DNA from: Dehalococcoidia bacterium | GTDB taxonomy: Bacteria; Chloroflexota; Dehalococcoidia; Bin125 | Reading direction: 5' to 3' | DNA: 64,000 nucleotides | Assembly: GCA_965215375.1 (NCBI GenBank) | Contig: CBDCDO010000002.1 | Location: 975,685 to 1,039,684, forward strand | Part shown: piece after piece, positions 9,692 to 62,113 of the stretch | Position numbering within the stretch: the stretch's first letter is position 1 | Layout of the letters: each line of letters begins with the position of its first letter | Translations under genes and position numbers: made by a program | The notes under the pieces: model-generated | What the model saw: only the letters and a program-made list of their open reading frames with translations | Databases searched by the model: none | Told to the model about the DNA's origin: nothing

Positions 9692-9712
9692 TCTGAGCCC
9701 CCCATCACTCCC

Positions 9713-10198: not shown

Positions 10199-10266
10199 GG
10201 CGCGTTACTCTGCTGCTCAAGACGACAACGATCGCGACACGTCGATCGGGCACGTGAGGAGCACGA

Positions 10267-16416: not shown

Positions 16417-16418
16417 CC

Positions 16419-30034: not shown

Positions 30035-30072
30035 CCTGCGCGACCAGCGCGGACGGTAGATCGGACTAACCC

Positions 30073-31554
30073 GTGCGCGGCGTGGGCGGAGCATTGACGA
30101 GTCCCTTCCGCCTCGTGTTTGGCGGCGCTTGGCGGGCGACCTTCGGTACTCGGCGGTCGCTCAGCATTGTGGTCACGTTGACGATCGTCGCCTTTGCGGT
30201 GGGCTTTGCTTCAAACTATTGGCTCCCCCAGCGACTGGGCTACACGCTGCTCTTCGGCCTGATCCTGGCCGGACTCTGGACCTGGTCTTCGGGACGAGGC
30301 GTTCGGGTACGGATGTCCCGCTCCCGCGATCGCGTGCAGGCGGGCGAGTCGATCGTCGAGCGCTTTGAGGTGATCAACGACTCTGGCATCCCCAAGCTCT
30401 GGTTGGAGGTCGAGGAGACCTCGGACCTGCCTGGTCACACGGCACAATTCGTGACGTCGCTGAGTCGAGTGAGCCATCGCAACTGGCGAGTGCAAACCGA
30501 ATGCGGCCGACGGGGTCTCTACAACCTCGGACCGATCACCGTGCGGAGCTCCGATCCGTTTGACATTTTCCACCGCGAACTGCGGTTCGGACACCGACGC
30601 GGTCTGGTCGTCTATCCGCGAGCACTTGAGCTGCCTCGGTACTCAGCTCCACCGGCCAACCTGCCCGGCGAGGGTCGCTTCCGTCGACGCACCCACTACG
30701 TCACGCCCAACGCGTCTGGCATCCGTGACTATGAAGCGGGCGACTCGGTCAACCGCATTCACTGGAAGAGCAGCCTGCGCACGGGATCGCTCAAGGTGAA
30801 GACCTTCGAGCTCGACCCTGCCTCGCACCTGTGGGTGATCCTCGACCTGTCCAGTCAGGATCACATGGGCAGTGGTGACGATGCGTCGATCGAGACCGCG
30901 GTCACGGTCGCCGCTTCGGTGGTGCGACTGTTCATCAACCAGAACCGCTCGGTCGGACTGATGATGTTCGGCGACCGCCTCGATGTGATCGAGCCCGACC
31001 GCGGATCACAGCACTTCGGTCGCATTTTGGAGTCGCTCGCGGTCGCCCAACCGGTCGGCACCGTTCCGGTCGCGTCGATTCTCTACCAGCAGTCGCGACG
31101 CTGGGGTCGACACACGACGGTGATCGTGATCACCGCCTCGACCGATCCACGTTGGCAGGGAGCGATCCGCACGCTCACCCAACGCGGGGTCAAGGCAGCG
31201 GTGGCACTGCTCGATCTCGATTCGTGGGGCGGTCGATCCGGCGCGGCCGCGACAGCGGTCGAGCTTCGTGCACTCGGCGTGCAGGTGAATCTGATTCGCA
31301 AGGGTGACCACATCCCGTCGGTGATGGTTGGGCAGATTCCTGGTGGACCGGTGGCCTCGGCCGCAGCGCTCGCCGACCTTGCCGCATCCGAATCCAACGG
31401 CGCCAATGGTGGTGGCGGGGTGCCGGCCGCGCAGTCCAATATGGAGATGGAAGAGGTGCTGTCCGAGTCGGCCTGGAGTGAAGGCGGAAGCGCCGCTCCC
31501 AGCGAGGCTGCGGATGGCGCGAAGTCGCCGAGTGAAGGGACACCGGTCCCATGA
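30073..31554 (+). CDS. DUF58 (vWA-like) protein
   Basis: 493 aa; N-terminal TM pair; DUF58 core (IRDYEAGDSVNRIHWKSSLRTGSLKVKTFE); C-terminal Ala/Gly-rich tail. Confidence 0.8.
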   Translation: MRGVGGALTSPFRLVFGGAWRATFGTRRSLSIVVTLTIVAFAVGFASNYWLPQRLGYTLLFGLILAGLWTWSSGRGVRVRMSRSRDRVQAGESIVERFEVINDSGIPKLWLEVEETSDLPGHTAQFVTSLSRVSHRNWRVQTECGRRGLYNLGPITVRSSDPFDIFHRELRFGHRRGLVVYPRALELPRYSAPPANLPGEGRFRRRTHYVTPNASGIRDYEAGDSVNRIHWKSSLRTGSLKVKTFELDPASHLWVILDLSSQDHMGSGDDASIETAVTVAASVVRLFINQNRSVGLMMFGDRLDVIEPDRGSQHFGRILESLAVAQPVGTVPVASILYQQSRRWGRHTTVIVITASTDPRWQGAIRTLTQRGVKAAVALLDLDSWGGRSGAAATAVELRALGVQVNLIRKGDHIPSVMVGQIPGGPVASAAALADLAASESNGANGGGGVPAAQSNMEMEEVLSESAWSEGGSAAPSEAADGAKSPSEGTPVP

Positions 31555-34428: not shown

Positions 34429-34570
34429 TCCGTCATTCCTGCGCGCCACGCTCCGTCATTCCTGCGCGCAGCGCGGGAATCTCGATCCTTGCGGTCTGCC
34501 TGATGTGCTCCTGTTGACGTTTCAGCCGCGTCGACGTTGGTGCTGGCCTCGGCGGGGCGCGGGTATGACG
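34429..34570. repeat. Family-A palindromic dispersed repeat
   Basis: CCGTCATTCCTGCGCGCAGCGCGGGAATCTCGATCC...GGCGCGGGTATGACG; same architecture as 5588-5720. Confidence 0.6.
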
Positions 34571-34639
34571 TAGTGATTTGTTTCGGCGGGTGTGACGATT
34601 GCTGCGCAGGTTCGACGATGTCGGGCTTATCCTGTTGGT

Positions 34640-35476
34640 ATGGCTCGCTCTTCTGAGATTGCACTTGCTTTGCTGACTGCTGCCCGCGAGGGGCCGGCGG
34701 TTGCTTCTTGCACCTTGATGGGCGCAACCGACGGTGTTGATGTCGAGGTCGGCGCGAAGATGCTCGTCTATGCGGGTGACGTTCTCGGCGACATTGGCGG
34801 CGGACCCTTGGAAGCGGCGGTCACCGAGTTCGCTCGCTCCGCCATCCCGAAGCACCTCGTCCAGACCTGCGCATTTTCTCCCGACGGCGAAATGATCGAA
34901 GGGCGACGCGCCATTGAATCGGCCGATGCCATCGTTGAAGTCCTCGTTGAGGTGGTCGAGCCGGCGGCGACGCTCCTCGTCGTCGGCGGTGGACACGTGG
35001 GCCTTGCCGTGGGACAGCTCGGTGCGATGCTCGGTATGGAGGTCGCGATCATTGACGACCGCGAGGACTACGCCAATGAGGAGCGATTCCCCTACGAGGC
35101 AAATGTCATCTGTGGCGACTTCGGCGAGGAACTCGAGCGCTTCCCGATTTCGGCCAACACCTACATCGTCCTGGTTTCGCGCGGACACAAGGTCGACGAG
35201 CTGGCGCTGCGAGCTGTCGCCGAGCGCGGAGCGGGCTACGTCGGCATGATCGGCTCCAAGCGACGCACCCGTACCGTCTTGCAACATCTCGCCGAAGAGG
35301 GGATCGACCACGACGCGCTGAACCGCATCTTCACGCCGATCGGGCTCGATATCGGCGCCGAGACGCCGGAGGAGATTGCGGTGTCGGTCCTGGGCGAGAT
35401 TGTGCTCGTCCGACGCGGTGGTGATGCTCAGCCGATGTCGGACTATGGCCGAAGCATTGCCACAACGCATCGCTAA
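34640..35476 (+). CDS. XdhC/CoxI-family accessory protein (full length; start uncertain 34592-34640)
   Basis: N-terminal XdhC_CoxI-like segment plus Rossmann XdhC_C (LLVVGGGHVGLAVGQLGAMLGMEVAIIDDRE). Confidence 0.7.
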   Translation: MARSSEIALALLTAAREGPAVASCTLMGATDGVDVEVGAKMLVYAGDVLGDIGGGPLEAAVTEFARSAIPKHLVQTCAFSPDGEMIEGRRAIESADAIVEVLVEVVEPAATLLVVGGGHVGLAVGQLGAMLGMEVAIIDDREDYANEERFPYEANVICGDFGEELERFPISANTYIVLVSRGHKVDELALRAVAERGAGYVGMIGSKRRTRTVLQHLAEEGIDHDALNRIFTPIGLDIGAETPEEIAVSVLGEIVLVRRGGDAQPMSDYGRSIATTHR

Positions 35477-35479
35477 ACT

Positions 35480-35560
35480 GAGAGCGATCATGTTGCTCCC
35501 CCTCGCAGGGGGAGCTGCCACGAAGCGGCTGCGGGGGTCCCCCTCACTGCGCGGTGACGG
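35480..35560. repeat. Family-B hairpin repeat (short)
   Basis: CTCCCCCTCGCAGGGGGAGCTG and CTGCGGGGGTCCCCC. Confidence 0.4.
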
Positions 35561-35578
35561 AAACTGGAGTAACGAGCA

Positions 35579-35896
35579 ATGCCACACGACGAGGTCTACG
35601 AAGCGATGTCCAGCTCGTTCGAGCGAGGCGCACCTGTGGCTCTGGCGACCGTCGCCCAAACGCTGGGCTCGACACCGCGCAAGACCGGCGCCAAGATGCT
35701 CGTCCGCGAGGATGGGACGTTCGTCGGGACGATCGGTGGCGGCTGCGGCGAAGCGGAAGTCTGGCAAGAGGCGATGGACGCCCTCGACGACGGCGACGCG
35801 CGCATGGTCACGGTCGACCTGACCGAGCCCGTCGATGGCGAGGACAAAATCTGCGGCGGAATCATGCGCATTTTCGTCGAGCGCCTGGAGGCGTAA
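35579..35896 (+). CDS. Stand-alone XdhC_CoxI N-terminal domain protein
   Basis: 105 aa; LATVAQTLGSTPRKTGAKMLVREDGTFVGTIGGGCGEAEV. Confidence 0.65.
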   Translation: MPHDEVYEAMSSSFERGAPVALATVAQTLGSTPRKTGAKMLVREDGTFVGTIGGGCGEAEVWQEAMDALDDGDARMVTVDLTEPVDGEDKICGGIMRIFVERLEA

Positions 35897-39982: not shown

Positions 39983-41389
39983 GTGAGCTCGCACGACCAA
40001 TCCCTCGTTGGTTCCTCTCGACTGGCCGTGGCCGTGTTGGCGGGCAAGGCGACTCGACTGGGGATGCGCACACTCGGCTCGGGCGGCACGGCGCTGCCTG
40101 GCCTCGTCGTCGAGCGACTGCAGCCCGACGCCGCCCATCGGCTGGCGCGTGGCCTCTCCCAGACGGCGCTGATCACCGGAACCAACGGCAAGACGACCAG
40201 CGCCGCGATGCTGGCTCGCATCCTCCGCGCTGACGGTCGGACGGTGCTCCACAATCGGTCGGGTTCCAACCTGCTGCGCGGCGTGACCGCGTCGCTGGTC
40301 GAAGCTGCCTCACCCGTCGGCCGACTACCTCCAGAGACCAACGCCGTCTTCGAGGCCGACGAAGCAGCACTACCCGCGATCGCGCGCGCTGCGCCTCCGA
40401 GCGTCGCTGTCTTCACCAACCTGATGCGCGACCAACTCGACCGCTACGGCGAGATCGAGTCGATCGCCCGACGCTGGTCCGACGCGCTTCCGACGTTCCC
40501 AACAGCGACCAACATCGTCGTCAACGTCGATGATCCGCTGATCGCCTCACTGGTCTCCCAATGGAACGGTCCCTGTCTGAGGTTTGGCATCGAAGACCCA
40601 CACATTCCGGCCGCGCCGACGGGCGAGATCGTGGACGCGATCTGGGATCCGCATACTCAGGACGATTTCCAGTATTCGCGTCGATACTTTGCCCAACTCG
40701 GTCGCTGGCGCACGAGCTCCGGTGTCGAGCGGCCTCAGCCGGACATCGCTGCGGACGAAATCATCACTCAGGGCGCATCGACCGCATTCACCTTGCGAAC
40801 CGCGGACGCGGAGGTGGCGATTGTGCTCCCTGCGGAAGGCTTGTACAGCGTCTACAACGCGCTCGCAGCGGCGTCGGCCGCGACGGCGCTCGGTGTCCCG
40901 ATTGGCGCGATCCAACAGGGTCTGGAATCGCATGAGGCGGCATTCGGTCGGCAGGAAACGCTGACGGTCAGGGATCGACGCGTGCGCATTTTGCTGGGCA
41001 AGAACCCGTCGGGGATGAATCAGGCGCTCCGCACCCTCCAGCGACCCGGCGAGCGACACCACCTGCTGATCCTGCTCAACGACGGCATCGCCGACGGCAC
41101 CGATGTCTCGTGGATTTGGGACGTCGATTGGGAATCGCAAGCCGACCACTGTCGAACGCTCACGGTCGGCGGTCGGAGAGCCGCCGACATGGCGCTGCGG
41201 CTCGAATACGCTGGATTTCCCGAGCCCGCCACGACACCGACCCGCGACATCGGTGCCGCGCTCGATGCCGCGCTCGAGACCGTTCCCGAGTCCGAACAAC
41301 TGATCATTTTGCCTACCTACACTGCAATGCTCGACGTCCGCCAGCGACTCGGACAGATGGGCGCCTCACGTCTCTGGGATGTTGCCTAG
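39983..41389 (+). CDS. murT: Lipid II isoglutaminyl synthase, ligase subunit MurT
   Basis: Mur-ligase P-loop ITGTNGKTT; C-terminal MurT domain; the Cys4 zinc-ribbon seen in Firmicute MurT appears absent. Confidence 0.85.
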   Translation: MSSHDQSLVGSSRLAVAVLAGKATRLGMRTLGSGGTALPGLVVERLQPDAAHRLARGLSQTALITGTNGKTTSAAMLARILRADGRTVLHNRSGSNLLRGVTASLVEAASPVGRLPPETNAVFEADEAALPAIARAAPPSVAVFTNLMRDQLDRYGEIESIARRWSDALPTFPTATNIVVNVDDPLIASLVSQWNGPCLRFGIEDPHIPAAPTGEIVDAIWDPHTQDDFQYSRRYFAQLGRWRTSSGVERPQPDIAADEIITQGASTAFTLRTADAEVAIVLPAEGLYSVYNALAAASAATALGVPIGAIQQGLESHEAAFGRQETLTVRDRRVRILLGKNPSGMNQALRTLQRPGERHHLLILLNDGIADGTDVSWIWDVDWESQADHCRTLTVGGRRAADMALRLEYAGFPEPATTPTRDIGAALDAALETVPESEQLIILPTYTAMLDVRQRLGQMGASRLWDVA

Positions 41390-42171
41390 TGTCCAGCGCC
41401 GACCGTCACCAGCTCAACATCGCCGTGCTCTACCCCGATCTGCTCAATCTCTACGGCGACCGTGGGAACGCTCGCGCCCTCGAGCGACGCTGCCTCGCGC
41501 GAGGCATCGGCGCCACGGTGACCGGCGTCGGCATCGGCGACAAATGGTCTCCACAAGAGGCCGACCTCGTGCTGGTCGGTGGTGGACAGGATCGCGAACA
41601 ACGGCGGGTGCAGTTGGATTTGCAGCAGCGCGGCCCATCGCTCCGCGACTATGTCGAGGATGACGGTGTCGTCCTGGCGGTCTGCGGCGGATTCCAGCTC
41701 TTTGGTCACCACTATCGCGGCTGGGATGGTGAGATCATGGAGGGGATCGGCATCTTCGACGCGGTCGCGTCGCATCCCGGTCCGACGATCGCCCGCTGCG
41801 TGGGCAACGTGGTCGCGCTGTGGGAAGGTGAAACCGTGGTCGGATTCGAGAATCACGGAGGTCGGACGTACCTCAGCGATGGTCAGAATGCCTTTGCCGA
41901 GGTCGTCAGTGGATTCGGCAACAACGGCGGCGACGGTCTCGAAGGGGCACGGGTCCAGAACGCCTTCGGGACCTACCTCCACGGAGCGGTCCTGCCCAAG
42001 AACCCTCGACTCGCCGATCGTTTGCTCTCGCTTGCGATGGCGCGTCGGTACGGTCCCGATGCCGCCGACTTGGAACCGCTCGACGACCGTGCCGCCCTCC
42101 GAGCTCACGCGGAAGCGTTGCATGCAGCACTGTCGACCGGTGAATCCCCACTGGGAAGACATTTCGCATAA
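41390..42171 (+). CDS. gatD: Lipid II isoglutaminyl synthase, glutaminase subunit GatD (CobB/CobQ-like GATase)
   Basis: GTG start immediately after murT stop; catalytic LAVCGGFQLFG and TYLHGAVLPKNP. Confidence 0.8.
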
Positions 42172-42222
42172 CGTACAGTCGATCCGTGGAAATACGCTCG
42201 ACGATCTGATCAAGGAACCCAC

Positions 42223-42442
42223 CATGGCTGCGACCACCACTCTGACCCGTACCGCGCCCGATATCTCCTGCGAACACTGCGCCAATGCCATCACGGGCGC
42301 GCTGGGAGCGATCGACGGCGTCACGTCTGTCGCCGTCGATATCGACGAGAAGCGTGTGAACGTGGAGTACAACGCCGCGGCCGCATCGGTGGAACAGATC
42401 GACGCCGCACTTGAGGAGGAAGGCTATCCCCCGCTCCGATAG
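42223..42442 (+). CDS. Heavy-metal-associated (HMA) domain protein
   Basis: 73 aa; metal-binding SCEHC in HMA fold context (VTSVAVDIDEKRVNVEY). Confidence 0.6.
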
Positions 42443-43463
42443 CCCTTGGAGACAGCAACCTCGCGGACCTCGAAGCTCCAACAGTCGGCGGTTCCGCAGC
42501 GACGGCGATTCCAACGACGGGTGGCTGGTCGGTCCGACCTGGCTCTACGTCGTGTTGGCGATCGTCATCTTCGCCGTCGCCGCAGCCATTGCCGTCGTCC
42601 AGGCGACCAACTCGGATGATCCCGCCGGGGCGGATCAGGCGCAGACGGTCAGCGCTGCGTCAACGACGGACGATGTGCAATCGTCTGCCAGCAGCGAGTC
42701 GGATGACGAACCGGTCGAACAGCCATCGGCACTCACACAGGAAGATGTCTCGTCGGAGACCGATGGCGCTGAATCGGAAGAGGCAGCCGACACCGTCGCA
42801 GAGTCCGAGCAGGAGAACCAGCCCGACCAATCTCAGGCGACCGAAGAACAAGCGCAACAGCAAGCATCAGCCGACACGCCAACTGAGCAGGAGACCGATG
42901 ATCCGGTGCGCGGATTCATCGTGCCGATCTCGGGAGCTTGCATCACGGAATTTACCGGTCACTTGCCGTCGGCCGAGCGAGCATATCGAAACGATGGCGT
43001 ACACGAAGGGCTCGACTTCTACGAGTGGGCCTCCTGCACGGCCGTCAACGTCGCCACCGAGATCCTCGCGGCGAAGTCCGGCGTCGTGATCCGCGCGGAT
43101 CTGAACTATGTCGAAATCACCCCTGCCGACTGGGAACGCTTCGAACGGGCGAACTTCGCGGGCGAAGCAATCCTCGACGAACTGCGCGGCCGACAGGTCT
43201 GGATTGACCATGGCCGCGGCGTCGTCACTCGCTACGCGCACCTCTCGGCTATCGCGCCCGACATCTCCGTGGGTGTCGAGGTGCAACGTGGACAGGTGAT
43301 CGGCTATCCCGGCGAATCGGGACAGCGCGAGGTCTACGCTGACCCAGGCACCGACATCCATCTCCACTTCGAGATCCGCGTCGCCGATGGCTGGCTTGGC
43401 CAGGGTGACGCGCCAGAAGTCGCGAGACTACGCTACCTCCGCGCCTTCGGTCTGGTTCCATAG
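42411..43463 (+). CDS. M23 family metallopeptidase with N-terminal TM and acidic low-complexity linker
   Basis: TM (LYVVLAIVIFAVAAAIAVV), acidic linker, LytM motifs HEGLDFY, RYAHLS, HLHFE; start uncertain. Confidence 0.7.
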   Translation: MRRKAIPRSDSPWRQQPRGPRSSNSRRFRSDGDSNDGWLVGPTWLYVVLAIVIFAVAAAIAVVQATNSDDPAGADQAQTVSAASTTDDVQSSASSESDDEPVEQPSALTQEDVSSETDGAESEEAADTVAESEQENQPDQSQATEEQAQQQASADTPTEQETDDPVRGFIVPISGACITEFTGHLPSAERAYRNDGVHEGLDFYEWASCTAVNVATEILAAKSGVVIRADLNYVEITPADWERFERANFAGEAILDELRGRQVWIDHGRGVVTRYAHLSAIAPDISVGVEVQRGQVIGYPGESGQREVYADPGTDIHLHFEIRVADGWLGQGDAPEVARLRYLRAFGLVP

Positions 43464-43572
43464 GTCGAGGCGGCCATCTCGGGTTCTGCGTCGTTCTCGT
43501 TCCCGTACCGTCCTCGTTCCCAGATGCGGAGAGCGCCAGAGCGTCCTACGATCGGCACATCATCCGCAAGAG

Positions 43573-43899
43573 AAGATCAACATGACCACTAAACAAGCTG
43601 TACCGAATCCGCTCCCGCTGCCTCAAGATGTGCCAACTCAGGATCTCGAGGAACGAACACTTCGCTTCGCCGCCAACTCATTGCTAGAACACTTATCTGC
43701 CAAAGAGAACGACGTCGATGATGTCGCGGTGCAAGCGCTCGTGTTTAACTTGCAGAATCTCATGCGACTATTCGACCGACCTGTGTACGTTTGCCCAATC
43801 GAAGACGGTTCCGTCCGATTCGATCGACGAATAGAACAAGGCGATTGGGAAGAGGGACGCTGGAAGCTCGCTTGGGAGGTCCGAGATGATACGGCGTAG
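43573..43899 (+). CDS. Hypothetical small acidic protein (low-GC cassette gene 1)
   Basis: 109 aa; region about 53% GC versus about 65% background; no recognizable family. Confidence 0.4.
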   Translation, partial: KINMTTKQAVPNPLPLPQDVPTQDLEERTLRFAANSLLEHLSAKENDVDDVAVQALVFNLQNLMRLFDRPVYVCPIEDGSVRFDRRIEQGDWEEGRWKLAWEVRDDTA

Positions 43900-44113
43900 C
43901 AACCTCCAACCGATTGGCGAAGGAAGTGATTCCACAACGCGATCGGAAAGGCCTTCCAGGCTGATGAGTCGAGTGGTATCGCCGTTACAACAGCAAGCAA
44001 ACCGAGCACTGAGATGGTCAAAGCAGGAAATTCTGCTCGCGTTCTTCGCTGCATTCATTGCTGGTCTGGGTGCGGGAGCGGCACAGGCCCTGATGTCTTG
44101 GGTGCTTGAGTAG
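43886..44113 (+). CDS. Hypothetical small protein with single C-terminal TM helix (low-GC cassette gene 2)
   Basis: 75 aa; 14-bp overlap with gene 1; C-terminal ILLAFFAAFIAGLGAGAAQALMSWVL. Confidence 0.35.
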   Translation: MIRRSNLQPIGEGSDSTTRSERPSRLMSRVVSPLQQQANRALRWSKQEILLAFFAAFIAGLGAGAAQALMSWVLE

Positions 44114-44115
44114 TC

Positions 44116-46476
44116 TCAACGCGGACTGATCGGCCCCGGCGCTGGATCATCGGCCGACCGCTTCGCGGTCAGACCCGCCACAACGCCGTCCCCGATCAGT
44201 TCCTCAATCCGCGACATCGAGAGCCCGAGAATTCCCTCGAGGATCTCCGCCGTGTGCTCTCCCATGCGAGGTGCTGGACGGACGCATGATGGCGGCCGCC
44301 GACGCAGTCGCCAGGGGAAGCCCTGATACTGTCGCGTCCCGGTGTCGGGGTGGGTCAGATGCAACCACCAGCCGCGAACAGCCAAGTGCGGGTCGTGCAA
44401 GTGCGTCAGGGTCGAGTGCACCACCGCCGCGGACACACCGATCGCCTGCAATCGATGCTGAAGCGTCTGCGCATTCCAGTTCTTGGTCCAGTCGCCCAGG
44501 GCTGCCTCCAGGTCAGCTTCGTCCAACTGCCGACCAGCCGCCGTTCGCCACTCAGGACGATCCAGCCCGGCGTCCGTCGCCAGTCGGAGCCATGATTCGT
44601 CGTCTCGGACTGAGATCGCGATCCACTCGTCACCGCCATCGATGCCATCGGCGCAGCGAAAGCACTCGTGCGGCGTCGCGCCGAGCTGTCGGTTGCCGTT
44701 GCGCGCCGGGGTCTCCTGGCCCGCCGAGGCTGCCAACAGATACTCATCGATGTAGGCAACTGCCGACTCGAACATTGACCCCTCGACGTGTACCGCAGTC
44801 CGCCGATCGCGAGCTTCCTGCGCTCGCCACACGGCCGCGAGCGCTGACGCGGCCATTTGTGCGCCGATAATCGGATCGGCCTGCATTGTGCCAAGCATGA
44901 GCGGTGGCTCGTCGCGATAGCCGTACAACAAGTCCCAGCCGGCGTTGCCCTCGGTCGTGCCGCCGTTGGCTCGGAAGTTGTCGTATGGCCCACCAGTCCC
45001 GAAGCCCGAGAACGACACCAACGCAACCTGCGGGTTGACTTCACGCATGTCGGCGTGGGTCAGTCGCAGATTCTGGAGTACGCGCGGGCGGAAGTTCTCC
45101 AGGACGACGTCCGCTCGCGCGATCAGATCCAGCGCCAACTGCCGACCGAGCTCTGTGTCCAGCGCGAGCGAAATCGTCCGCTTCCCACGATTGGCCATAT
45201 TGAAGTTTGGCCGCACGTTGAGTGGATGCGCGTCGGGCGAGGCCACACGCATCGGACCACCCGCCTCATAGCGCCACAGATCGGGACGTTTCGGACCCTC
45301 GACCTTGATCACCTCGGCGCCCAGATCGCTCAGTAGACCAGAGGCATACGGACCGAGCCAGGCATGGGTGAAGTCGACTACACGCAACCCATCGAGCGGG
45401 CCGCTCGACTGCTCCGGCCTCGGCCGAGACGCGAACCGTTCGCTTCCGCCGCGCTCGGAGTCGCCTTCTGACTCATGCTCCGTAACGCGCATTGCGCGTC
45501 CTGCGCCAGTGAGACCGTCCTCGGTGCGAAAGAAATCCATCGCCTGTAGCTGTGGATCGTTGAGCAGTTGTTCCGTCGACCGATGCATCGCCATCACGAC
45601 GCCGAGTTCTGAGAGCCTCGTCCAGACCGTCTCCGCGTCTCGTGATTCCACAATGGGGCGGACGTATTCGAGCGATGGTTCACGCTCGGCGAAGCGGCCC
45701 TCGCCTTCCAGCAGCTCCTCGGGCGGAGGATCGCAGCCGAACGCGATCGGCACGTTGCGCAGCGTCTCTCGAGACCACGGCGAGATCGTGACGTAGCCGT
45801 CCGCCGCCTTCAGCACCTTGGCCCAGCCAGGAGTGCCACCGACGCGCGGCAGCGCCTGACCCGAGAACTCCGACCGCAGCGACATAATCAACGTCGAGCA
45901 GGCCTCGTGCGACGACAGCTCGATCCATTCGCCACAGCCGGAGTGCAATCGCTCCAGCAACGCCGCCAGCGCCGCGACCGCGCCGAGTACGCCGATCGTG
46001 CGTGGGATGATCGCCGCTGGCGCGGCCAGCGGCTCTTGCCCGTGCAATCCATTCGTACCTGCAAATCCCGATAACGCTTGGATGATGAGATCGTCGGTCA
46101 GATACTCCGCGTACGGCCCGTCGGTTCCAAACGACGACGAATGTACGACGACCAGACGGGGAAACTCCTCGGCCACGCCGTCCAGCTCCGACAGCGGAGC
46201 GTCCGTGACCAACACATCGGCTTCATCAAGCGCCGATCTCCAAGCGCCCGACTGCAGCTCCTTACCGACCAGCAGGGACGCTCGCAACAATGAGACCGTC
46301 TCGCCGTCGCGCTCGATCGTCGGTGCGGCGCCCTTCAGCCGACTGTCGGCCGCTTCGAACGTCCGAACCTGAGCACCCCAGCGCGAGAACTCCCGCGCGC
46401 AGGCGGCCGCTGGTACGTCGCGACTGTATTCGACAACTCGAACACGGCTCAGCAGGTTCCCATCCGACACGGCCAA
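44116..46476 (-). CDS. Tandem-fused family III CoA-transferase (two CaiB/BaiF domains)
   Basis: 786 aa; second domain starts around LDGLRVVDFTHAWLGPYASGLLSDLGAEVIKVE; first domain VVEYSRDVPAAACAREFSRWGAQV. Confidence 0.8.
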   Translation of the reverse strand: MAVSDGNLLSRVRVVEYSRDVPAAACAREFSRWGAQVRTFEAADSRLKGAAPTIERDGETVSLLRASLLVGKELQSGAWRSALDEADVLVTDAPLSELDGVAEEFPRLVVVHSSSFGTDGPYAEYLTDDLIIQALSGFAGTNGLHGQEPLAAPAAIIPRTIGVLGAVAALAALLERLHSGCGEWIELSSHEACSTLIMSLRSEFSGQALPRVGGTPGWAKVLKAADGYVTISPWSRETLRNVPIAFGCDPPPEELLEGEGRFAEREPSLEYVRPIVESRDAETVWTRLSELGVVMAMHRSTEQLLNDPQLQAMDFFRTEDGLTGAGRAMRVTEHESEGDSERGGSERFASRPRPEQSSGPLDGLRVVDFTHAWLGPYASGLLSDLGAEVIKVEGPKRPDLWRYEAGGPMRVASPDAHPLNVRPNFNMANRGKRTISLALDTELGRQLALDLIARADVVLENFRPRVLQNLRLTHADMREVNPQVALVSFSGFGTGGPYDNFRANGGTTEGNAGWDLLYGYRDEPPLMLGTMQADPIIGAQMAASALAAVWRAQEARDRRTAVHVEGSMFESAVAYIDEYLLAASAGQETPARNGNRQLGATPHECFRCADGIDGGDEWIAISVRDDESWLRLATDAGLDRPEWRTAAGRQLDEADLEAALGDWTKNWNAQTLQHRLQAIGVSAAVVHSTLTHLHDPHLAVRGWWLHLTHPDTGTRQYQGFPWRLRRRPPSCVRPAPRMGEHTAEILEGILGLSMSRIEELIGDGVVAGLTAKRSADDPAPGPISPR

Positions 46477-46490
46477 TGCCTCCCGATCAC

Positions 46491-47306
46491 CTACTGCGAG
46501 TTGCCCGGCTTCTGCAGCTTCGCCAGCGCCTCGGCGACCGGCGATAGCTGTCGCTTGTCAGGCATCATGCGCGGATCTACCTGACCGAATCGCGCCCCGA
46601 CGGCATAAGTCATAAAGCTGGCGTTGATATGCGTCGTGAAACCCTGACCGTCCTGCGCGTTGTTAATCGAGTGCTTCACCTGTCGGAGGAACATCGGCGC
46701 TCGCTGCGCGACCTCGCCGGCGTAGGCCAAGGTCTTTCGCTCGAGCGCCTCGATCGGATACACCTGATTGACGAACCCGAGCTCCTGCGCTTCGCGCGCT
46801 GGGATGAACCGGTTCTGGAACAGAATCTCCTTCGATTTGCGCACACCGAGATCCCACGGCGCCGAGAAGTACTGCGTGTGCGAAGGCAGGAAGAGCGCGT
46901 CGTCGGACGCAAAGATCAGATCCATCGACGCCGCGACCATCCAGCCGCCGAAAATGCACTTGCCGTGCACCATCGCGATGGTCGGCTTGGGAATGTTGCG
47001 CCAACGCATCGTGTTTGTGATACGTGTGTCGCGCTGACGGTCAAACACACCGACAAAGTCGTCGGCCCAGCCCCGAACCTCGCGGTCGGCGAGCTCCGTC
47101 GGCGACCCAAGGTCGTGCCCCGCCGAGAAGTCCGGACCATTGCCCGACAGCACGATCACCTGCACCTCTGGGTCGTCGTTCGCCTCCTGGAAGGCACGGT
47201 CGATCTCTTCCAGCAACACCCGCGACTGGGCATTCCGATACTCGGGTCGATTCATGATTACTCGGGCAACGGGTCCCGGCTCATAGATCACTTCGTGATA
47301 CGTCAT
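46491..47306 (-). CDS. Enoyl-CoA hydratase/isomerase (crotonase) family protein
   Basis: 271 aa; VIVLSGNGPDFSAGHDLG and crotonase fold motifs. Confidence 0.85.
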   Translation of the reverse strand: MTYHEVIYEPGPVARVIMNRPEYRNAQSRVLLEEIDRAFQEANDDPEVQVIVLSGNGPDFSAGHDLGSPTELADREVRGWADDFVGVFDRQRDTRITNTMRWRNIPKPTIAMVHGKCIFGGWMVAASMDLIFASDDALFLPSHTQYFSAPWDLGVRKSKEILFQNRFIPAREAQELGFVNQVYPIEALERKTLAYAGEVAQRAPMFLRQVKHSINNAQDGQGFTTHINASFMTYAVGARFGQVDPRMMPDKRQLSPVAEALAKLQKPGNSQ

Positions 47307-47395
47307 GGCATGCTCCGCTCAACAGCTCAAATCCAATCCGAGACTAACAGCGGCCCAGCACCACTCCTTCGTCACCTGCCATCCTTCATCACCCC

Positions 47396-47733
47396 AGGCG
47401 CAACTCCGTCATTCCTGCGCGCAGCGCGGGAATCTCGATCCGTGCGGCTCGGCTGATTTGCTGCTCAGGACGCATTTGCCACGTCGCAGCACGTCTCGAA
47501 GCGGGCGGGGTACCCGCGGCAGAGCGGAGGCCTTTGATTAACTTGCTCCCCCTCGCAGAGCCTGTCCCCGCGTAGGCGGGGAGGGAGCTGTCGCGCAGCG
47601 ACTGAGGGGGTCCTGCCGGCGCGGGTACCAGATAGGACTTGGTGGAGCAGGACCCCCTCCGCCTTTGGCACCTCCCCCTGCTGGGGGAGGAAAGGGATTA
47701 CGCAAAGGTCTCCGGCGGAGCGCGGGTATGACG
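47396..47733. repeat. Composite repeat: family-A ends flanking nested family-B hairpins
   Basis: Starts CCGTCATTCCTGCGCGCAGCGCGGGAATCTCGATCC, ends GGCGGAGCGCGGGTATGACG; interior CTCCCCCTCGCAG, GTCCCCGCGTAGGCGGGGAGGG, CCTCCCCCTGCTGGGGGAGG. Confidence 0.6.
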
Positions 47734-47776
47734 ATTTGGATGGACCTCCCTTCGCGGGTTTGACGATAGTGGCGTG

Positions 47777-48568
47777 CTACTTGAACGACTCCGCTAGGAG
47801 GGCGTTGAGGATTTGGTTGAAGTCTTCCGGCTGCTCCCAGTAGACGCTGTGGCCGGCCTTGGGCACTTCTTGGTACTTGGCTCCTGGGACCATTCCGGCG
47901 GCTCTTTCGATGAGCGCGGCGGGGATGATTGCGTCTTCTGACCCTGCGAGGAAGTAGACCGGCATCGTTAGTGCGGACAGCTCATCCGGTCCGACGGCGC
48001 CGTCCTCTCGTCCGAATGACAATGGTTGGCCTGCGTCGAGCGGTGGATTGAGGCCTCGAATCTGGTTGTATAGGAAGACACCGTTGGGTTCGCGCTCGAG
48101 GTATGCCGGACCGACCATCCGCGTTAGCCCTCCTCCGGCCTGGTTGACCTGCGCCGACTCGAGCGCTTTGCGCATTTCGGCTAACAGCTCCTCCGACTCG
48201 ATCCCGAGGAACGTGTCGGCCATCAGCAGTCCGCGTACGCGATCGGGATTGCGCACGGCGAAGGGCAGAATTGTGAATCCACCCATCGACTGTCCAACCA
48301 GCACCGCCTCAGGAATCTCCAGCGCGTCCATCAACTCGCCGAGGTCGCGAGCGAAGGCGCGGCGACCCTCGCCCGAGTCATCGCGGCTCTGTCCCCAGCC
48401 ACGCACTTCGTAGGTGACGCATCGGTAGCGATCGCGATACACGGGTATCTGTTGCCACCAGCTCAGATGATTCCCGCCCGCTCCGTGGACGAAGATGATC
48501 GTCTCTGGACCATCCCCGAATTCGTCAAAGACCAACTGTCCACCGGTCACGTTCATTGTCTGCGGCAT
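47777..48568 (-). CDS. Alpha/beta hydrolase fold protein
   Basis: 263 aa; IIFVHGAGGNHLSW, nucleophile elbow GQSMGG. Confidence 0.8.
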   Translation of the reverse strand: MPQTMNVTGGQLVFDEFGDGPETIIFVHGAGGNHLSWWQQIPVYRDRYRCVTYEVRGWGQSRDDSGEGRRAFARDLGELMDALEIPEAVLVGQSMGGFTILPFAVRNPDRVRGLLMADTFLGIESEELLAEMRKALESAQVNQAGGGLTRMVGPAYLEREPNGVFLYNQIRGLNPPLDAGQPLSFGREDGAVGPDELSALTMPVYFLAGSEDAIIPAALIERAAGMVPGAKYQEVPKAGHSVYWEQPEDFNQILNALLAESFK

Positions 48569-48676
48569 CGACTTGTGCTCCGTTCGATTTGATTGCGGGT
48601 TGCGTTTGTGATTGCGTTTCCAATCTTGCTAAACGCTACCCTCTTGTCAGCCTGTACATATTGAGAGTGTTCCCCA

Positions 48677-49734
48677 TGGCCTTCGAATACACCGACATCG
48701 ACCTGCCAATTCGCGACAGCACGATCGCCTCGCAGCGGATGAGTTGGGATGTTATCGCCAGCCCTGGTCGATGGTGGAGCGGCGCTGAGCGAGTCGAGAT
48801 CGCGCGGATCGGTCGGGCCGCTCGCGACTTTGCATCCGCGAGCAGTGAGATCCTGCCGGAAGCCGCCGTTTACGCGATCCAGAAGCTCGTCGTCGACAAC
48901 GCAAATCTCAATCGCGAATGGTACGACGAGATTATCCGCTCTGACGGGATGGGCGAAGATCGCTACGTCGAGCTCGTTGCCGTGGTCGTGCACGCGCTTT
49001 CGATCGACGAGTTCCACCGCGCGCTCGACATTGCGCTGGAACCGTTGCCCGACGCTCAGCCCGGGGAACCCACGCGACAGCGTCCTCCAGAGGCGGAACA
49101 GCGGTACTCCTGGCCGCCGATCGTCCCGAAATCCGGTCTCAATCCTGGCGACGAGCAGCTCTACGGCCCGATGGAGTGGGGCGCCAACGTGATCTCGGCG
49201 CTTTCGCTCGTTCCCGAGAACGTGCGATGGCTCCACGATCTGTCCGAGGGTCACTACCTTTCCTTCGCCGAGATGCGTATGCCCGACCCGCTGCGCTCCA
49301 TCTCTCGCGCCCAGATTGAGCTGATCGCCGCCAGAGTCTCGGCCCTGAACGAGTGCTTCTATTGAACTGCGTCGCACGTGCGCATGCTCCGTGAGAGCAG
49401 CAATCGCAGCGGCACCCTCGACGGCCTCAACCTGCAGGGCACGGTCAATCCCGACGCCGACAGCGGCGTCCCGCACGGCAACCTCCTGACCGCGTTTGCC
49501 GAAGCCGCCGTCCGCCAAACAGACGCACTGCCGGCGCTGCGAGAACAGATCGTCGCAGAACTGGGCGCGCAGGAGTTAGTCGATGCCGCGGGCGTGGTCG
49601 CCAACTTCCAGCGCATGGTTCGGATCGCCGACGGTTGCGGCATTCCGCTCGATGAGTACACCCGCGAAGCGACCGAAGATTGTCGCGAGGAGCTCGGCCT
49701 GCACGAGTTCGCCTCGGCAGCCAACACGGCATAG
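48677..49734 (+). CDS. AhpD/carboxymuconolactone decarboxylase-family protein, candidate selenoprotein (in-frame UGA at 49363-49365 read as Sec)
   Basis: ORFs 48556..49365 and 49378..49734 share a frame, separated by one TGA; read-through gives RVSALNEC-FY-U-TAS-H matching CMD/AhpD motif N-x-C-x-x-C-x-x-x-H; hairpin 49384-49401 inside outer CUGCG/CGCAG stem right after UGA. Confidence 0.6.
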
Positions 49735-49747
49735 CAAGGAGCCTCAG

Positions 49748-50845
49748 ATGACCACCACCACTGCCCCCTTCGCCTACGTCAGCACGACGTGGGACATCCC
49801 AACCCGCGTTCGCGACGCGCACATTCGCAGCTGGGAGCGACTCGCCGCGCCCGGCGAGTGGTGGAGCGGCGCTGAACGTGTCAGCATCGCCGCTGAGTCC
49901 CGTCGAGCCTCAGCCCTCGTCGACGGTCGCTCTGATCCCGGTCCCGGCCCCATCGACCTGCCAGAGGCGACCGTGTTCGCCGTCCACAAGCTGATCGGCG
50001 ACCTGCCCAACGTCACCCGCGAGTGGTACGACGAAACGATCCGCGCCGACGGTATGTCGGACGCCCATTACATCGAAATGCTCGGTGTGGTCGTCAATAT
50101 CTGGTCGGTGGACGAGTTTCACCGTGCGCTCGACATCGAGCTCGAACCGTTGCCCGAACCGATCGCGGGCGAGCCGACGCAGATTCGTCCAGCCGGCGCG
50201 AAAGAGCATGGCAGCTGGCCGCCAACCGTCTGGCCGAAGGACCTGGACGCGCGCGACTCCGACATCTACGGCGGCAACGAGTACGCAGCCAACGTCCGCG
50301 CCGCGATGAGTCTGCATCCCGACAGCGTTCGCTGGCTCGGCGAGCTGTTCGACGCCCACTACCTGAGCTGGATTGAGATCGCTGGCGAGCAGGAGTCGTT
50401 CCGAGTCCTCACCCGACCGCAGCGAGAGCTGGTCGCGGCCCGAGTGTCCGCCCTGAACGAGTGCTTCTATTGAACAATCTCACATGTCATGCTGCTCGGT
50501 CGGAGCAGCGACGAGAACGACACACTGAACCTCAACGGCACCGTCCGCAACGAGGTCGATAGCGGCGTCGAGCACGGCGAGGCCCTCTTGCGATTCGCCG
50601 ATGCTGCCGTCGGTCGGGCACCCGACCTCGCGCAGGCGCGTGAGGCTGTCCACGTTGCCATGGGAGCAGAAGGCGTGATCGACTGTGCTGCGGTGATCGC
50701 CAACTTCCAGCGCATGGTCAGAATCGCTGACGGCTGTGGGATCCCGCTCGATTCCACGACCGCAGAGACCAGCGAGCCTTGGAGAGACGCGCTCGGCATC
50801 AACGACTTCCGAAGCCGAAACAACACCTTCACGCCAAGCAGCTAG
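49748..50845 (+). CDS. AhpD/CMD-family candidate selenoprotein, tandem paralog (in-frame UGA at 50471-50473)
   Basis: ORFs 49583..50473 and 50489..50845 share a frame; read-through gives ...ARVSALNECFY-U-TISH-VMLLGRSSDENDTLNLNG; hairpin GCUGCUC-GGUCG-GAGCAGC at 50491-50509, 18 nt after UGA. Confidence 0.6.
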
Positions 50846-50877
50846 GGCGTGGTCACATAAGGCCATTCAGTCCAGGA

Positions 50878-51030
50878 GTTCCCGTCCAACCCACTGAGAT
50901 ATCCGTCATACCCGCGCTCCGCTGCGGGTATGACGCTGCATTTGGCGCCACTGTCTGTGCACAACTCGACGAGATTGCCCCCTGCATCAAGTGCGGGGCA
51001 GGCTACGACAAGCGCGGCGATGACGGAATT
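50878..51030. repeat. Family-A repeat variant (reverse-complement orientation of the 60064-60200 copy)
   Basis: GTCATACCCGCGCTCCGCTGCGGGTATGACG ... CGGCGATGACGGAATTCTGACGAAGCAGTTGGC. Confidence 0.55.
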
Positions 51031-51062
51031 CTGACGAAGCAGTTGGCTGATGTGAACCCGCC

Positions 51063-51233
51063 CTCGCCGAGGCTGCGGTGCGTGGTCGAGTTGCTGTCAC
51101 ATTCAGATAGGGGTAGCGTGGTTGATCCCAGCCCTTCGGCGCCTTTCCGAAGGGCCACGCCCAAGGAAGTGAGTCCAAATCCCGTACTTCGGAATCCGAA
51201 TCAGCCGAGTTGTTCCGCCAAAACCGACAACCT
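51063..51233 (-). ncRNA. tmRNA (ssrA) 5'-domain-like fragment; incomplete, possibly a remnant
   Basis: Minus-strand GGCUGAUUCGGAUUCCGAAGUACGGGAUUUGG resembles tmRNA 5' consensus GGGGCUGAUUCUGGAUUCGACGGGAUUUGCG; no tag ORF, T-arm or acceptor 3' strand found downstream; downstream region is a family-A repeat. Confidence 0.25.
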
Positions 51234-53664: not shown

Positions 53665-55032
53665 TTAGCTGGGGTGAAATCCGTCGACCCGCTCGCGCAG
53701 GTCGTCGAACTGCTCAAACGGACCGACCACAGCCGCCGCGAGGTTGTCTTCGCGCACAATCCGCTCGGCGACACGCTGAATGTCCGCCGCGGAGACTGAC
53801 TGATAGCCCAAAATCGTCTCCTCGACCGGCTCGATGAAGTCGTTCGCGAGCAACATTCCCCCAGCGCGATGACACCAGCTCGCGGCGGCGTCGAGGCCGA
53901 GTCGGAACGAGCCAACCGTATGCTCGCGAACACGGTCGATCTCCTCATCGGTCACTGGTTCAGCGATGAGTTTGCTCAGCTCCTCGAGGACGACATCGAC
54001 CGTCTCGAGCACGTGTTCGCCGGTCACGCCGGCCACAATTGTGAGGTGTCCTGCGTCATCGAACGCCGTCGGGTATGAACCGACCGAGTAGGCCAGCCCG
54101 CGCTTCTCACGGATTTCGGTAAACAGTCGAGAACTCATTCCGCCGCCCAACACCTCATTCATCAGCGTGAGCGCGAAGCGATCCGGATCGTGTCGGTGTA
54201 TCGATCGCAGCGCCATCGCCAGACTGCACTGTTCCAGATCGCGGACCTCAATCGTCGCTCGATCATCGGCCATCGTCGCGTCCGCGGATATCCGAGCCGG
54301 CGTCGGCTCGACCGCCGAAGCCGCCCAACCGGCACCCCAATGACGTTCGGCCAGGGCCAATACTTCGTCCCGCTCGACGTTGCCGGCGACGGAGAGCACG
54401 ATGTTCGAGGGTCGGTACCAGGTGTCAATGTGGTTCGTCAGGTCGTCGCGGGTGATGGCGTCGACCGATGCCAAGTCGCCCGCGATCTCCCAGCCCAACG
54501 GCTGCTCGCCGTACGACGCTTGGGTCAGGAGCTGCGAAACTCGCTGGCCCGGCTGGTCGTGAGCGCGTCGAATCTCGGAGCAGATCACCGTGCGCTCGCG
54601 CTCGATCTCGGATTCGGCCATCAGGGAATGACGCACGGAGTCGGCCAGCACATCCATGGCCAGCGAGAGTCGGTCAAAGGGCACGCGGTTCCAGAAGCAG
54701 GTGGTCTCGCGCGATGTGAATGCGTTCAGCGATCCGCCGGCGCCCTCAATTGCCGCAGAGATCGCGGTCGGCTCCGGTCGAGACTCCGTGCCCTTGAACA
54801 GCATGTGTTCCAAGTAGTGGGAGAGGCCAAGCGTCCGACGAGCCTCGTCCCGCGATCCGACGCCCACGTAGGCTGCCAGCACAGCGGCCTGCGAGTGCGG
54901 AATCGACGTCACGACCACACGCAGTCCGTTGGGCAGGACATCAATGCTGGGCGTGACGGTGAGACGTTCGGCTGTTCGGTCTGACATGAGCAATCTCAGC
55001 ATACCCGCGCCACCAACCAAAGCCCCAACCAC
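53665..55032 (-). CDS. M16 family (pitrilysin/insulinase-like) zinc peptidase
   Basis: Inverted zinc motif HYLEHMLFKGT; start may be internal (MSDRT at about 54987). Confidence 0.8.
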   Translation of the reverse strand: MVGALVGGAGMLRLLMSDRTAERLTVTPSIDVLPNGLRVVVTSIPHSQAAVLAAYVGVGSRDEARRTLGLSHYLEHMLFKGTESRPEPTAISAAIEGAGGSLNAFTSRETTCFWNRVPFDRLSLAMDVLADSVRHSLMAESEIERERTVICSEIRRAHDQPGQRVSQLLTQASYGEQPLGWEIAGDLASVDAITRDDLTNHIDTWYRPSNIVLSVAGNVERDEVLALAERHWGAGWAASAVEPTPARISADATMADDRATIEVRDLEQCSLAMALRSIHRHDPDRFALTLMNEVLGGGMSSRLFTEIREKRGLAYSVGSYPTAFDDAGHLTIVAGVTGEHVLETVDVVLEELSKLIAEPVTDEEIDRVREHTVGSFRLGLDAAASWCHRAGGMLLANDFIEPVEETILGYQSVSAADIQRVAERIVREDNLAAAVVGPFEQFDDLRERVDGFHPS

Positions 55033-55035
55033 CGC

Positions 55036-55136
55036 TGAGATTATCCGTCACACCTGCCGAGCCATCCGTCATACCCGCGCTCACCGCGGGTATCCCCCTG
55101 CACTCCGCGGCAATGACGGAGTTCTGACTGAGCAGG
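55036..55136. repeat. Family-A repeat variant
   Basis: CCGTCATACCCGCGCTCACCGCGGGTATCCCCCTGCACTCCGCGGCAATGACGGAGTTCTGAC. Confidence 0.5.
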
Positions 55137-55144
55137 GGTCTAAT

Positions 55145-56104
55145 GTGAACACACCCTTGGGTGAGGGTCCCAAACATCCCACCTCAACAGATCAACCAAC
55201 CGCAGCCGCGGATCAGCACCAAGCTCGCCTGCCACCCCGCTATCGCAAGCGCGTGGCCCAGGAACCTGACATGCAAGCATTCGTCGAGGCCCGCTACGAC
55301 TATCACTGGGCCCCGCTGCTCGGCTGTCTGGTTGGTCACCTGGAACACATCGGGATTGCTCAGCCGAGCTCCACCATCGGCTCGGTGACGGGCATCAGCT
55401 ATCAGCCGCCCCAAGACGCCGAGCTGCCCGCCACATTGAGAGACGGCCTCGCTTCGCTGGGCGCATCCTCACAGGTCACTAATCTGACCGATCCCAACCG
55501 ACTGCAACGCTATCGCGCCCGTCGACACCTTCGCGGCGAGCTGCGTGCCGACCGACCGGTCACGACCTATGGCGTCGGCGTCTCGGCCTTCGGTCCGGCT
55601 TGGGGACTGGTTGTCGGCGTCGATGACGAGCGCCGCGCTTGGCGTCGCGACGGTCCGATGACTGAACAGGTCTCGCCTTGGCTCGCAGAGACCGAGTTCA
55701 ACGCCTCGCCGACGCTCATCTTGATCGCCGCGCGCAAGGTCAACGGGACCAACGAGCCCGATCCTGACCGTGTCGTCGAGGTCGCCGCCGAGGCGTTCGC
55801 GCGGTCGAAGGAGCGGGCACGATCGGACCTCGGCGACCGCATCGCGCTGCTGGATAGCTCGGTCGAGATCGAACCGCAACGGTACGCGCACGAAGCTCAG
55901 ACGCTGGCCGCCAACTGGGGCGAGGCCGCCACCTTCTGGCGCGAGATGTCGGACCCTGACATCACACCCATCGCCCAGCAGATGGCCGTCACCCTGTCTC
56001 GCTACGCGACGCTGTTTCCCTACCCAATGGGCGGACAGCCCAACCACCCTGGCGTCCGAAACGCCGCAGTTCGCGTGCTCAGCGAAGCCCGAACGCTGGT
56101 CTAA
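55145..56104 (+). CDS. Hypothetical protein (start uncertain: GTG 55145 or ATG 55274)
   Basis: About 280-320 aa ORF without recognizable motifs. Confidence 0.4.
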   Translation: MNTPLGEGPKHPTSTDQPTAAADQHQARLPPRYRKRVAQEPDMQAFVEARYDYHWAPLLGCLVGHLEHIGIAQPSSTIGSVTGISYQPPQDAELPATLRDGLASLGASSQVTNLTDPNRLQRYRARRHLRGELRADRPVTTYGVGVSAFGPAWGLVVGVDDERRAWRRDGPMTEQVSPWLAETEFNASPTLILIAARKVNGTNEPDPDRVVEVAAEAFARSKERARSDLGDRIALLDSSVEIEPQRYAHEAQTLAANWGEAATFWREMSDPDITPIAQQMAVTLSRYATLFPYPMGGQPNHPGVRNAAVRVLSEARTLV

Positions 56105-60063: not shown

Positions 60064-60413
60064 GCCAACTGCTTCGTCAGAATTCCGTCATTGCCGCGCT
60101 TGTCTCAGCCTGCCCCGCACTTGATGCGGGGCAATCTCGCCGAGTTGTGCACAGACACTGGCGCCAAATGCAGCGAGATACCCGCGGCGGAGCGGAGACC
60201 TTTGAATTACCCCTTAACCGCCCCCGCCTCCGCCTCCGAGCGGGGGCCTGCTCCTTCCCTGGCTTCTTACCGGCGACCATGTTTGTCGCCGGTATCTGGT
60301 CAACCGGGACCTATCCGAGCAGCCTGGGCTTTGCCAAAGCGGGTCCCCGCTCGGGGGCGGGGACGGGAAACTGAGTTTTTCAAAAGTCTCCGGCGGAGCG
60401 CGGGTATGACGGA
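60064..60413. repeat. Composite repeat: family-A variant ends with nested family-B hairpins
   Basis: CTTCGTCAGAATTCCGTCATTGCCGCGC...GCGAGATACCCGCGGCGGAGCGG ... GGGTCCCCGCTCGGGGGCGGGGACGGGAAA ... CGGCGGAGCGCGGGTATGACGG. Confidence 0.6.
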
Positions 60414-60673
60414 TATCTCCTGGACTGAGCGACCCCCTGTGAACACGCCCTGGTTCCGCGGCACTTGCCACTAGATGATCAACACCGATAAAATGCGAAT
60501 GTTCCAACCGGGAACTCTCTCACACTCCGCGCCTGTCGATTGTTTGGCGCCGTCGAGTGTGCCAGCCCGGATTTCCGCAGACTGAATTCGCATTGTCCCG
60601 TCCACGATCACGATCAACACGCACCGATCACCCACGTAGCGTTCACAACACGCCCTGATACCAGAGGTAGCCG

Positions 60674-62012: not shown

Positions 62013-62113
62013 CCCGTCATTCCCGCGCTTGCCGCGGGAATCTCGATCCGCGCGTCAAGGGCGCTCTGGTGCGGGACTCAGCGAGATACCCACGGCGGAG
62101 CGCGGGTATGACG
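62013..62113. repeat. Family-A palindromic dispersed repeat
   Basis: CCCCGTCATTCCCGCGCTTGCCGCGGGAATCTCGATCC...GCGAGATACCCACGGCGGAGCGCGGGTATGACG. Confidence 0.6.

Follow-up and report, generated by a model that had tools for sequence, protein, structure and literature searches.

Tandem genes with an in-frame TGA

Two adjacent genes, designated A and B, lie in tandem on the forward strand of a 64,000-nucleotide stretch of DNA from a Dehalococcoidia bacterium (contig CBDCDO010000002.1). This whole stretch is referred to as the window. Each gene is interrupted by one in-frame TGA, a candidate codon for selenocysteine (Sec, U). Gene A extends from the ATG at 48676, one nucleotide before the start given in the initial annotation (48677), to the TAG at 49732-49734; gene B extends from the ATG at 49748 to the TAG at 50843-50845. 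Translation places both internal TGAs exactly where that annotation had put them. The read-through products contain the segments ...ARVSALNECFY-U-TASHVRMLRE... (A) and ...ARVSALNECFY-U-TISHVMLLGR... (B), and A and B share 50% identity across their full length (360 columns, E 5e-116). A spacer of only 13 nt separates the genes and holds a Shine-Dalgarno-like AAGGAG, which suggests that A and B may belong to a single operon. The features of the locus, with the evidence for each, are as follows.

48676..49734, + strand: gene A, read-through coding sequence of 352 aa with predicted Sec at residue 230 (match to family NF041238; orthologs share the MAFEY start)
49363..49365, + strand: putative Sec-UGA codon of gene A, codon 230 (TGA in 34 of 34 complete orthologs; Cys in homologs P0104, P0107 and P0140)
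49382..49401, + strand: hairpin A, GC-(A bulge)-UGCUC, loop CGUGA (49390-49394), GAGCA-GC (conservation; criteria for bacterial Sec insertion sequences, bSECIS)
49736..49741, + strand: AAGGAG, Shine-Dalgarno-like, 6 nt 5' of the gene B start in the A-B spacer (direct reading of the sequence)
49748..50845, + strand: gene B, read-through coding sequence of 365 aa with predicted Sec at residue 242 (match to NF041238; paralog of A)
50471..50473, + strand: putative Sec-UGA codon of gene B, codon 242 (TGA in 27 gene B orthologs and in the window)
50491..50509, + strand: hairpin B, 7-bp stem GCUGCUC/GAGCAGC, loop GGUCG (50498-50502) (folding energy, pairing and bSECIS criteria)

When the window was scanned for further in-frame TGAs flanked on either side by coding-like composition, only those of A and B were credible. 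The remaining candidates were antisense shadows of annotated genes and were discarded.

Conservation of the internal TGA

Orthologs were compared in 35 related loci (L001-L035) from metagenome-assembled genomes (MAGs) of Chloroflexota/Dehalococcoidia, several of which have sponge-style bin names. The internal stop of gene A is TGA, at codon 230, in all 34 complete orthologs (73-86% identity); their terminal stops vary between TAG, TGA and TAA. Gene B is present in tandem in 27 of the related loci, and its internal stop is TGA in each. Protein-coding constraint continues across the codon. Pairwise differences at codon positions 1, 2 and 3 amount to 0.127, 0.072 and 0.413 on the 5' side of the TGA and to 0.107, 0.080 and 0.378 on the 3' side, and amino acid identity among orthologs is 83.8% upstream and 83.4% downstream.

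These data bear directly on the possibility that A and B are pseudogenes created by nonsense mutation. One in-frame stop in each gene is what such an origin would leave behind, but 34 + 27 orthologs that span 73-86% identity have the TGA at the equivalent codon, and purifying selection is equal on its two sides. Its retention by two paralogs that are only 50% identical also speaks against a chance mutation, an argument already drawn from the two copies in the initial annotation. Finally, 252 of the 254 database homologs shorter than 330 aa end at the same residue, in the motif ...N(E/Q)CFY. On comparative sequence data, then, the pseudogene explanation is already refuted, and next to no probability attaches to it.

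A second explanation takes the UGA as a true stop. Proteins of 229 aa (A) and 241 aa (B) would end there, and a separate 118-aa protein would restart at GTG 49378 or ATG 50489. In-frame start codons do occur four to five codons past each TGA, and public gene calls show precisely this pattern of 229/241 plus 118 aa. The codons that lie before the first possible restart are decisive. Codons 231-234 (T-A-S-H; T-A/T-S-H as a pattern) are conserved as amino acids and vary synonymously, so that they must be translated in frame, which excludes the reading as separate genes. Separate genes would also forfeit the His of the CxxC-xxx-H motif, and full-length homologs with Cys at this position occur as single polypeptides. 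Moreover, more than 60 genes have TGA, and no other stop, at this position, and the hairpin that follows it is constrained at the RNA level. Split genes are thus very improbable.

Two irregularities were seen among the related loci. Gene B is missing from six that retain gene A (L007, L009, L013, L014, L016 and L034). The gene A copy of L034 carries an additional in-frame TGA at 6868, with the C-terminal match shifted to 6851; an assembly error, a frameshift or an insertion could account for this.

Hairpins downstream of the TGA

A hairpin follows each TGA within the coding sequence. Numbered from the U of UGA, both have a 5-nt loop at nucleotides 28-32, and G29-U30 is common to the two loops. 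Published criteria for bSECIS elements (PMC13188914) specify a loop of 3-9 nt, an upper stem of 4-16 bp, a G in the first two loop positions, a distance of 16-37 nt from the UGA and a minimum free energy (MFE) of -7.5 kcal/mol or lower. Both hairpins fall within these bounds, each with 24-nt spacing and -17.6 kcal/mol (for A, over nucleotides 4-54). Hairpin A combines the loop CGUGA with a stem of 5+2 bp, and hairpin B the loop GGUCG with one of 7 bp. A hairpin is found at the equivalent position in a more distant homolog (L037, ~37-40% identical) and in a third paralog group (L039).

The two elements are supported by different kinds of evidence. Hairpin B, whose position and pairing (GCUGCUC-GGUCG-GAGCAGC) had been given exactly in the initial annotation, is more stable than 198 of 200 shuffled sequences (MFE z -2.4 to -2.8). 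Across 27 distinct orthologs, 94% of cells pair. Two-sided changes preserve the stem at G21-C39, which becomes C-G in four sequences, and at U20-G40, which becomes A-U in five; the ten one-sided stem changes (U-A to U-G or G-C to G-U) all yield a G-U wobble. For hairpin A, the evidence lies in the sequence constraint. Nucleotides 22-39 comprise 18 positions that are invariant across 30 orthologs, and 98.5% of cells in the upper stem pair. In 29 distinct orthologs, the overlapping codons 238-242 (L-R-E-S-S, four of them six-fold degenerate) have a synonymous variation of zero, the lowest value among 243 windows in the gene, for which the gene-wide mean is 0.97 bits.

An outer CUGCG/CGCAG stem had been proposed to enclose hairpin A. 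This lower stem is unsupported: the related 9-pair helix that was evaluated, which joins nucleotides 5-13 to 42-50 and is offset from the proposed pairing, pairs in 64% of cells and shows no meaningful covariation.

A point of reference is the SECIS element of Escherichia coli fdhF, which likewise forms a hairpin directly 3' of the UGA within the coding sequence. The loop of hairpin B begins with the GGUC of the fdhF loop, as read from the K-12 genome, and hairpin A shares the G-U. The loop begins at nucleotide 22 in fdhF, whereas it begins at nucleotide 28 in A and B; the stems differ as well, and no Rfam model links the elements.

Membership of the CFYUT selenoprotein family

The read-through proteins match a curated selenoprotein family over their full length, in line with the relationship to AhpD first proposed for them. 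NF041238 is an NCBIfam equivalog model named 'AhpD_rel_CFYUT, alkylhydroperoxidase-related (seleno)protein', with a cutoff of 175 bits. Gene A scores 358.6 bits over model positions 1-357 of 357, and gene B 345.9 bits over positions 3-357. The CFYUT motif for which the model is named is present as NECFY-TGA-TASH in A and NECFY-TGA-TISH in B, and is kept in all orthologs. General models of the superfamily detect the same region: Pfam PF02627 (carboxymuconolactone decarboxylase, CMD) matches at the motif with 30.7 bits (A) and 24.5 bits (B) against a gathering score of 23, covering only the CMD/AhpD core, and TIGR00778 (ahpD_dom) gives 28.5 for A (cutoff 27.8) and 27.0, slightly under the cutoff, for B.

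Cysteine homologs supply a further line of evidence. The expectation that they would exist at the UGA column was borne out by P0104 (CFYCTSAH), P0107 (CFYCTNAH) and P0140 (CFYCTSVH), and the full-length Cys homologs are single polypeptides. Such Cys forms are rare: the 258 homolog clusters retrieved (P0001-P0258) include only three. One further homolog, P0095 (MEM7080499.1), called '(seleno)protein' at NCBI, reads CFYVTSSH; its V may stand in for U or be a genuine Val.

Taken together, A and B are very probably tandem paralogous selenoprotein genes of family NF041238, probably co-transcribed, in an uncultured Chloroflexota/Dehalococcoidia host. The host lineage is one that is common in marine sponges. 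The selenoprotein interpretation in the initial annotation was therefore essentially right, as the TGA, the His four residues on and the hairpin are all conserved in orthologs; its suggestion of novelty was overstated. According to a 2026 review (PMC13188914), NF041238 corresponds to 'hypothetical protein 1' from the Sargasso Sea selenoproteome, for which the original description of 2005 gives both a predicted SECIS element and a conserved CXXU motif (Zhang, Fomenko and Gladyshev, PMC1088965). With family, Sec codon and motif already curated and published, there is little discovery value in the locus, and A and B are ordinary members of a known selenoprotein family.

Comparison with related systems

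Relative to NF041238 and 'hypothetical protein 1', nothing essential differs: the match is full length at about twice the cutoff, the CFYUT and CxxU motifs are the same, and a SECIS-like hairpin lies downstream. What is local to A and B is the occurrence of tandem paralogs, both with predicted Sec, in Dehalococcoidia. An N-terminal CxxC (e.g. EDCGFC), carried by the homologs P0095, P0104 and P0107, is absent from both.

The correspondence with the AhpD motif claimed at the outset holds at the level of individual residues. In the AhpD-like structures 6k40 and 2oyo, N-R-C-(V/L)-Y-C-A-V-S-H aligns position by position with N-E-C-F-Y-U-T-A-S-H. Compared with Mycobacterium tuberculosis AhpD (1gu9/1knc) and the AhpD-like TIGR01926 proteins (6k40, 2oyo, 2pfx and 3c1l), A and B are twice as long, carry an extra N-terminal domain and would have Sec in place of the second Cys. 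Sequence similarity to the solved AhpD-like structures is limited to residues 208-328. The first ~200 residues constitute the extra domain, which is helical and strongly conserved, with many invariant positions (e.g. PGxWWxGxxR). A comparison of the N-terminal 140 aa with the C-terminal domain by hhalign detected no internal duplication (probability 0.2). The C-terminal window fragments were left out of the MAFFT alignment, in which they were misplaced. Structure was modelled for the Cys homolog P0104 in place of A and B, and its C-terminal third was predicted poorly because the alignment contained few full-length sequences. Human Sestrin-2 (PDB 5cuf) shows a resemblance only, at 11% identity and with the C-terminal part of the model at low confidence.

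Other selenoproteins of the superfamily have been reported from the sea. The AhpD-like 1/2 and CMD-domain selenoproteins of the GOS and Sargasso Sea data share with A and B the superfamily, a CxxU motif and marine or uncultured hosts, and these CxxU proteins are abundant in marine metagenomes. Their families (COG2128/TIGR01926 and PF02627) are listed separately from NF041238 in the review table (PMC13188914).

Evidence for selenocysteine insertion

Several results weigh against the reading of A and B as AhpD-related selenoproteins. (i) No selA, selB or selD was found in Pfam scans of ~40 larger open reading frames (ORFs) of the window, with short ORFs and a few others left unscanned, nor in the 35 related loci; ARAGORN found no tRNA-Sec in the 64-kb window or in those 35 loci. 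(ii) The hairpins are unequally supported. Hairpin A is no more stable than shuffled sequences (z +0.5 to +0.7, in a sequence of 63% GC) and displays conservation rather than covariation; the upper hairpin proposed initially does exist, but it is not exceptional thermodynamically, and its reality is argued from conservation. The covariation of hairpin B is confined to one clade, so that its compensatory changes represent few independent events, perhaps one or two. (iii) Rfam returned no SECIS family match, either for the whole window at the gathering score or for 49300-50600 at E values up to 10. This null result is weakly informative, since a good Rfam model of the bacterial elements is not known to exist. 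(iv) The models for AhpD proper and for peroxidase-related proteins score far below their cutoffs: 15 against 191.95 for TIGR00777, and 37.4 (A) and 34.2 (B) against 81.8 for TIGR01926. Judged by these scores, A and B are relatives of AhpD and not members of either subfamily, and the chemistry of an 'AhpD-like peroxidase' can therefore be proposed by analogy, not by membership. (v) In the P0104 model, the catalytic C-terminal third is of low confidence. What the data show directly is the recoding signature, the constraint on the hairpins, membership of the family and the existence of Cys homologs; selenium insertion, redox chemistry, substrate and operon status are inferred from them.

Good indirect evidence for the machinery comes from two sources. 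Locus L005 (contig MPNM01000001.1) derives from bin125 of an Aplysina aerophoba metagenome and contains both orthologs, each with its TGA. One SelA (COG1921) and one SelB (COG3276) are listed for bin125 in Table S4 of Slaby et al. 2017 (PMC5649159), where SelA and SelB are also reported as enriched in sponge-symbiont bins. In BSepDB, Dehalococcoidia MAGs are among the richest bacterial selenoproteomes, with 46-49 selenoproteins.

The UGA might still be read without selenium, by near-cognate Trp or Cys insertion, by insertion of Cys through the Sec machinery or by a lineage-wide reassignment of UGA. Such decoding would accord with the fact that Sec insertion is deduced for A and B and that none of the machinery was seen in the source window. 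Reassignment is contradicted by the window itself: UGA is a normal stop there, terminating 12 of 31 Pfam-supported genes at sites where the domain match is already complete (ValRS and SecA, for example). The conserved, position-specific hairpin fits the SECIS criteria, and the presence of Cys in homologs at the Sec column is the classic Sec/Cys signature. A relative that carries the gene pair, bin125, is moreover the one reported with SelA and SelB. Selenium-free decoding is accordingly assigned only a very small probability, and Sec remains by far the preferred identity of the encoded residue.

Proposed mechanism

A pathway for synthesis and activity of the two proteins can be outlined. (i) The in-frame UGA of each mRNA would be recoded as Sec. 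(ii) The hairpin with a 5-nt loop, from 24 nt past the UGA and with G-U at loop positions 2-3, would act as the bacterial SECIS. (iii) This element would recruit SelB with Sec-tRNA(Sec), so that the ribosome reads through to yield the predicted products of 352 and 365 aa. (iv) In each product, an AhpD/CMD-type domain with the motif C-F-Y-U-T-x-S-H is predicted to follow the N-terminal domain. By analogy, Sec would occupy the position of the second Cys in the AhpD CxxC...H motif, with the conserved His four residues on. In M. tuberculosis AhpD this second Cys is Cys133, which we take to be the nucleophile. (v) Sec would cycle with Cys227 (A) or Cys239 (B) through a selenenylsulfide, and the enzymes would serve as thiol/selenol oxidoreductases in hydroperoxide or disulfide reduction. 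By analogy with AhpD, this Cys/Sec redox cycle is most likely the chemistry of A and B.

M. tuberculosis AhpD and the pair differ in one further respect, in that no AhpC partner gene was found near A and B: no peroxiredoxin/AhpC gene appeared among the ~40 larger window ORFs scanned, short ORFs and a few others being outside the scan. A different proposal is that CFYUT proteins are not peroxidases and that they might act as selenol-based reductases on another substrate, for example in sponge organobromine dehalogenation by an A/B heteromer. Little supports this beyond the symbiosis of the hosts with sponges, the nearly exclusive use of Sec in the family and a highly conserved extra N-terminal domain. 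To these may be added Bmp8, whose Cys-based mechanism has been likened to that of the selenoenzyme deiodinase. This suggestion is very improbable. The thiol/selenol oxidoreductase assignment is preferred. As a family that is overwhelmingly Sec-containing and biochemically uncharacterised, the CFYUT proteins are a reasonable target for functional work.

Consequences for annotation

The practical value of the locus lies in annotation. The initial suspicion that pipelines would miss such genes was well founded. The 229-aa and 241-aa fragments of the window are present, truncated, in the public protein collections searched. Since all but two of the 254 homolog predictions under 330 aa are likewise cut at the UGA, the selenoproteomes of sponge-associated Dehalococcoidia are under-reported in their genomes.

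Genomic context

The window is core chromosome, as judged by its nuo genes and the genes for valyl-tRNA synthetase (ValRS), SecA, GroEL, phosphoribosyl pyrophosphate (PRPP) synthase, CTP synthase and Rho. Upstream of gene A, synteny with L001-L035 extends over window positions 42411-48568 and includes an M23 peptidase, a 786-aa family III CoA-transferase and an enoyl-CoA hydratase (85-92% identical). An alpha/beta hydrolase also lies upstream of the pair in about half of the loci. The CoA-transferase, enoyl-CoA hydratase and alpha/beta hydrolase genes are divergent from A and B, and this arrangement is kept in most related loci. A functional link between the pair and its divergent neighbours is possible on this gene order. 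A second family III CoA-transferase is encoded in the window at 9554-11410. In L037 (3015-5310) the order is a rhodanese-domain gene, a 130-aa ORF without Pfam hits, the CFYUT gene and a 61-aa ORF. Rhodanese-like proteins are themselves frequently associated with selenium or sulfur transfer.

Directly after gene B begins a dispersed intergenic repeat (window 50846-51070). It holds a palindrome with an 11-bp stem, GTCATACCCGC-N8-GCGGGTATGAC, at 50905-50934. A 133-nt copy, 92% identical, occurs elsewhere in the window together with shorter core fragments; the repeat-related stretches are 60064-60194 (-), 60393-60419 (-), 55045-55115, 62079-62113, 5692-5720 and 47715-47733. Relatives have copies that are ~85% identical at other positions (2151-2337 and 5754-5913 in L010; 2071-2289 in L011). 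From its sequence the repeat looks like a repetitive extragenic palindrome (REP) or a miniature inverted-repeat transposable element (MITE).

Five long ORFs of the window had no Pfam match at E 1e-5: 19223-21064 (-), 34433-35767 (-), 41386-42372 (-), 54929-56104 (+) and 15523-16473 (-). They include a 613-aa ORF beside secA, and some may be spurious in GC-rich sequence. At 29084-34406 (+), genes for a MoxR AAA ATPase, a DUF58 protein and a 951-aa TgpA-like transglutaminase form an apparent three-gene operon.

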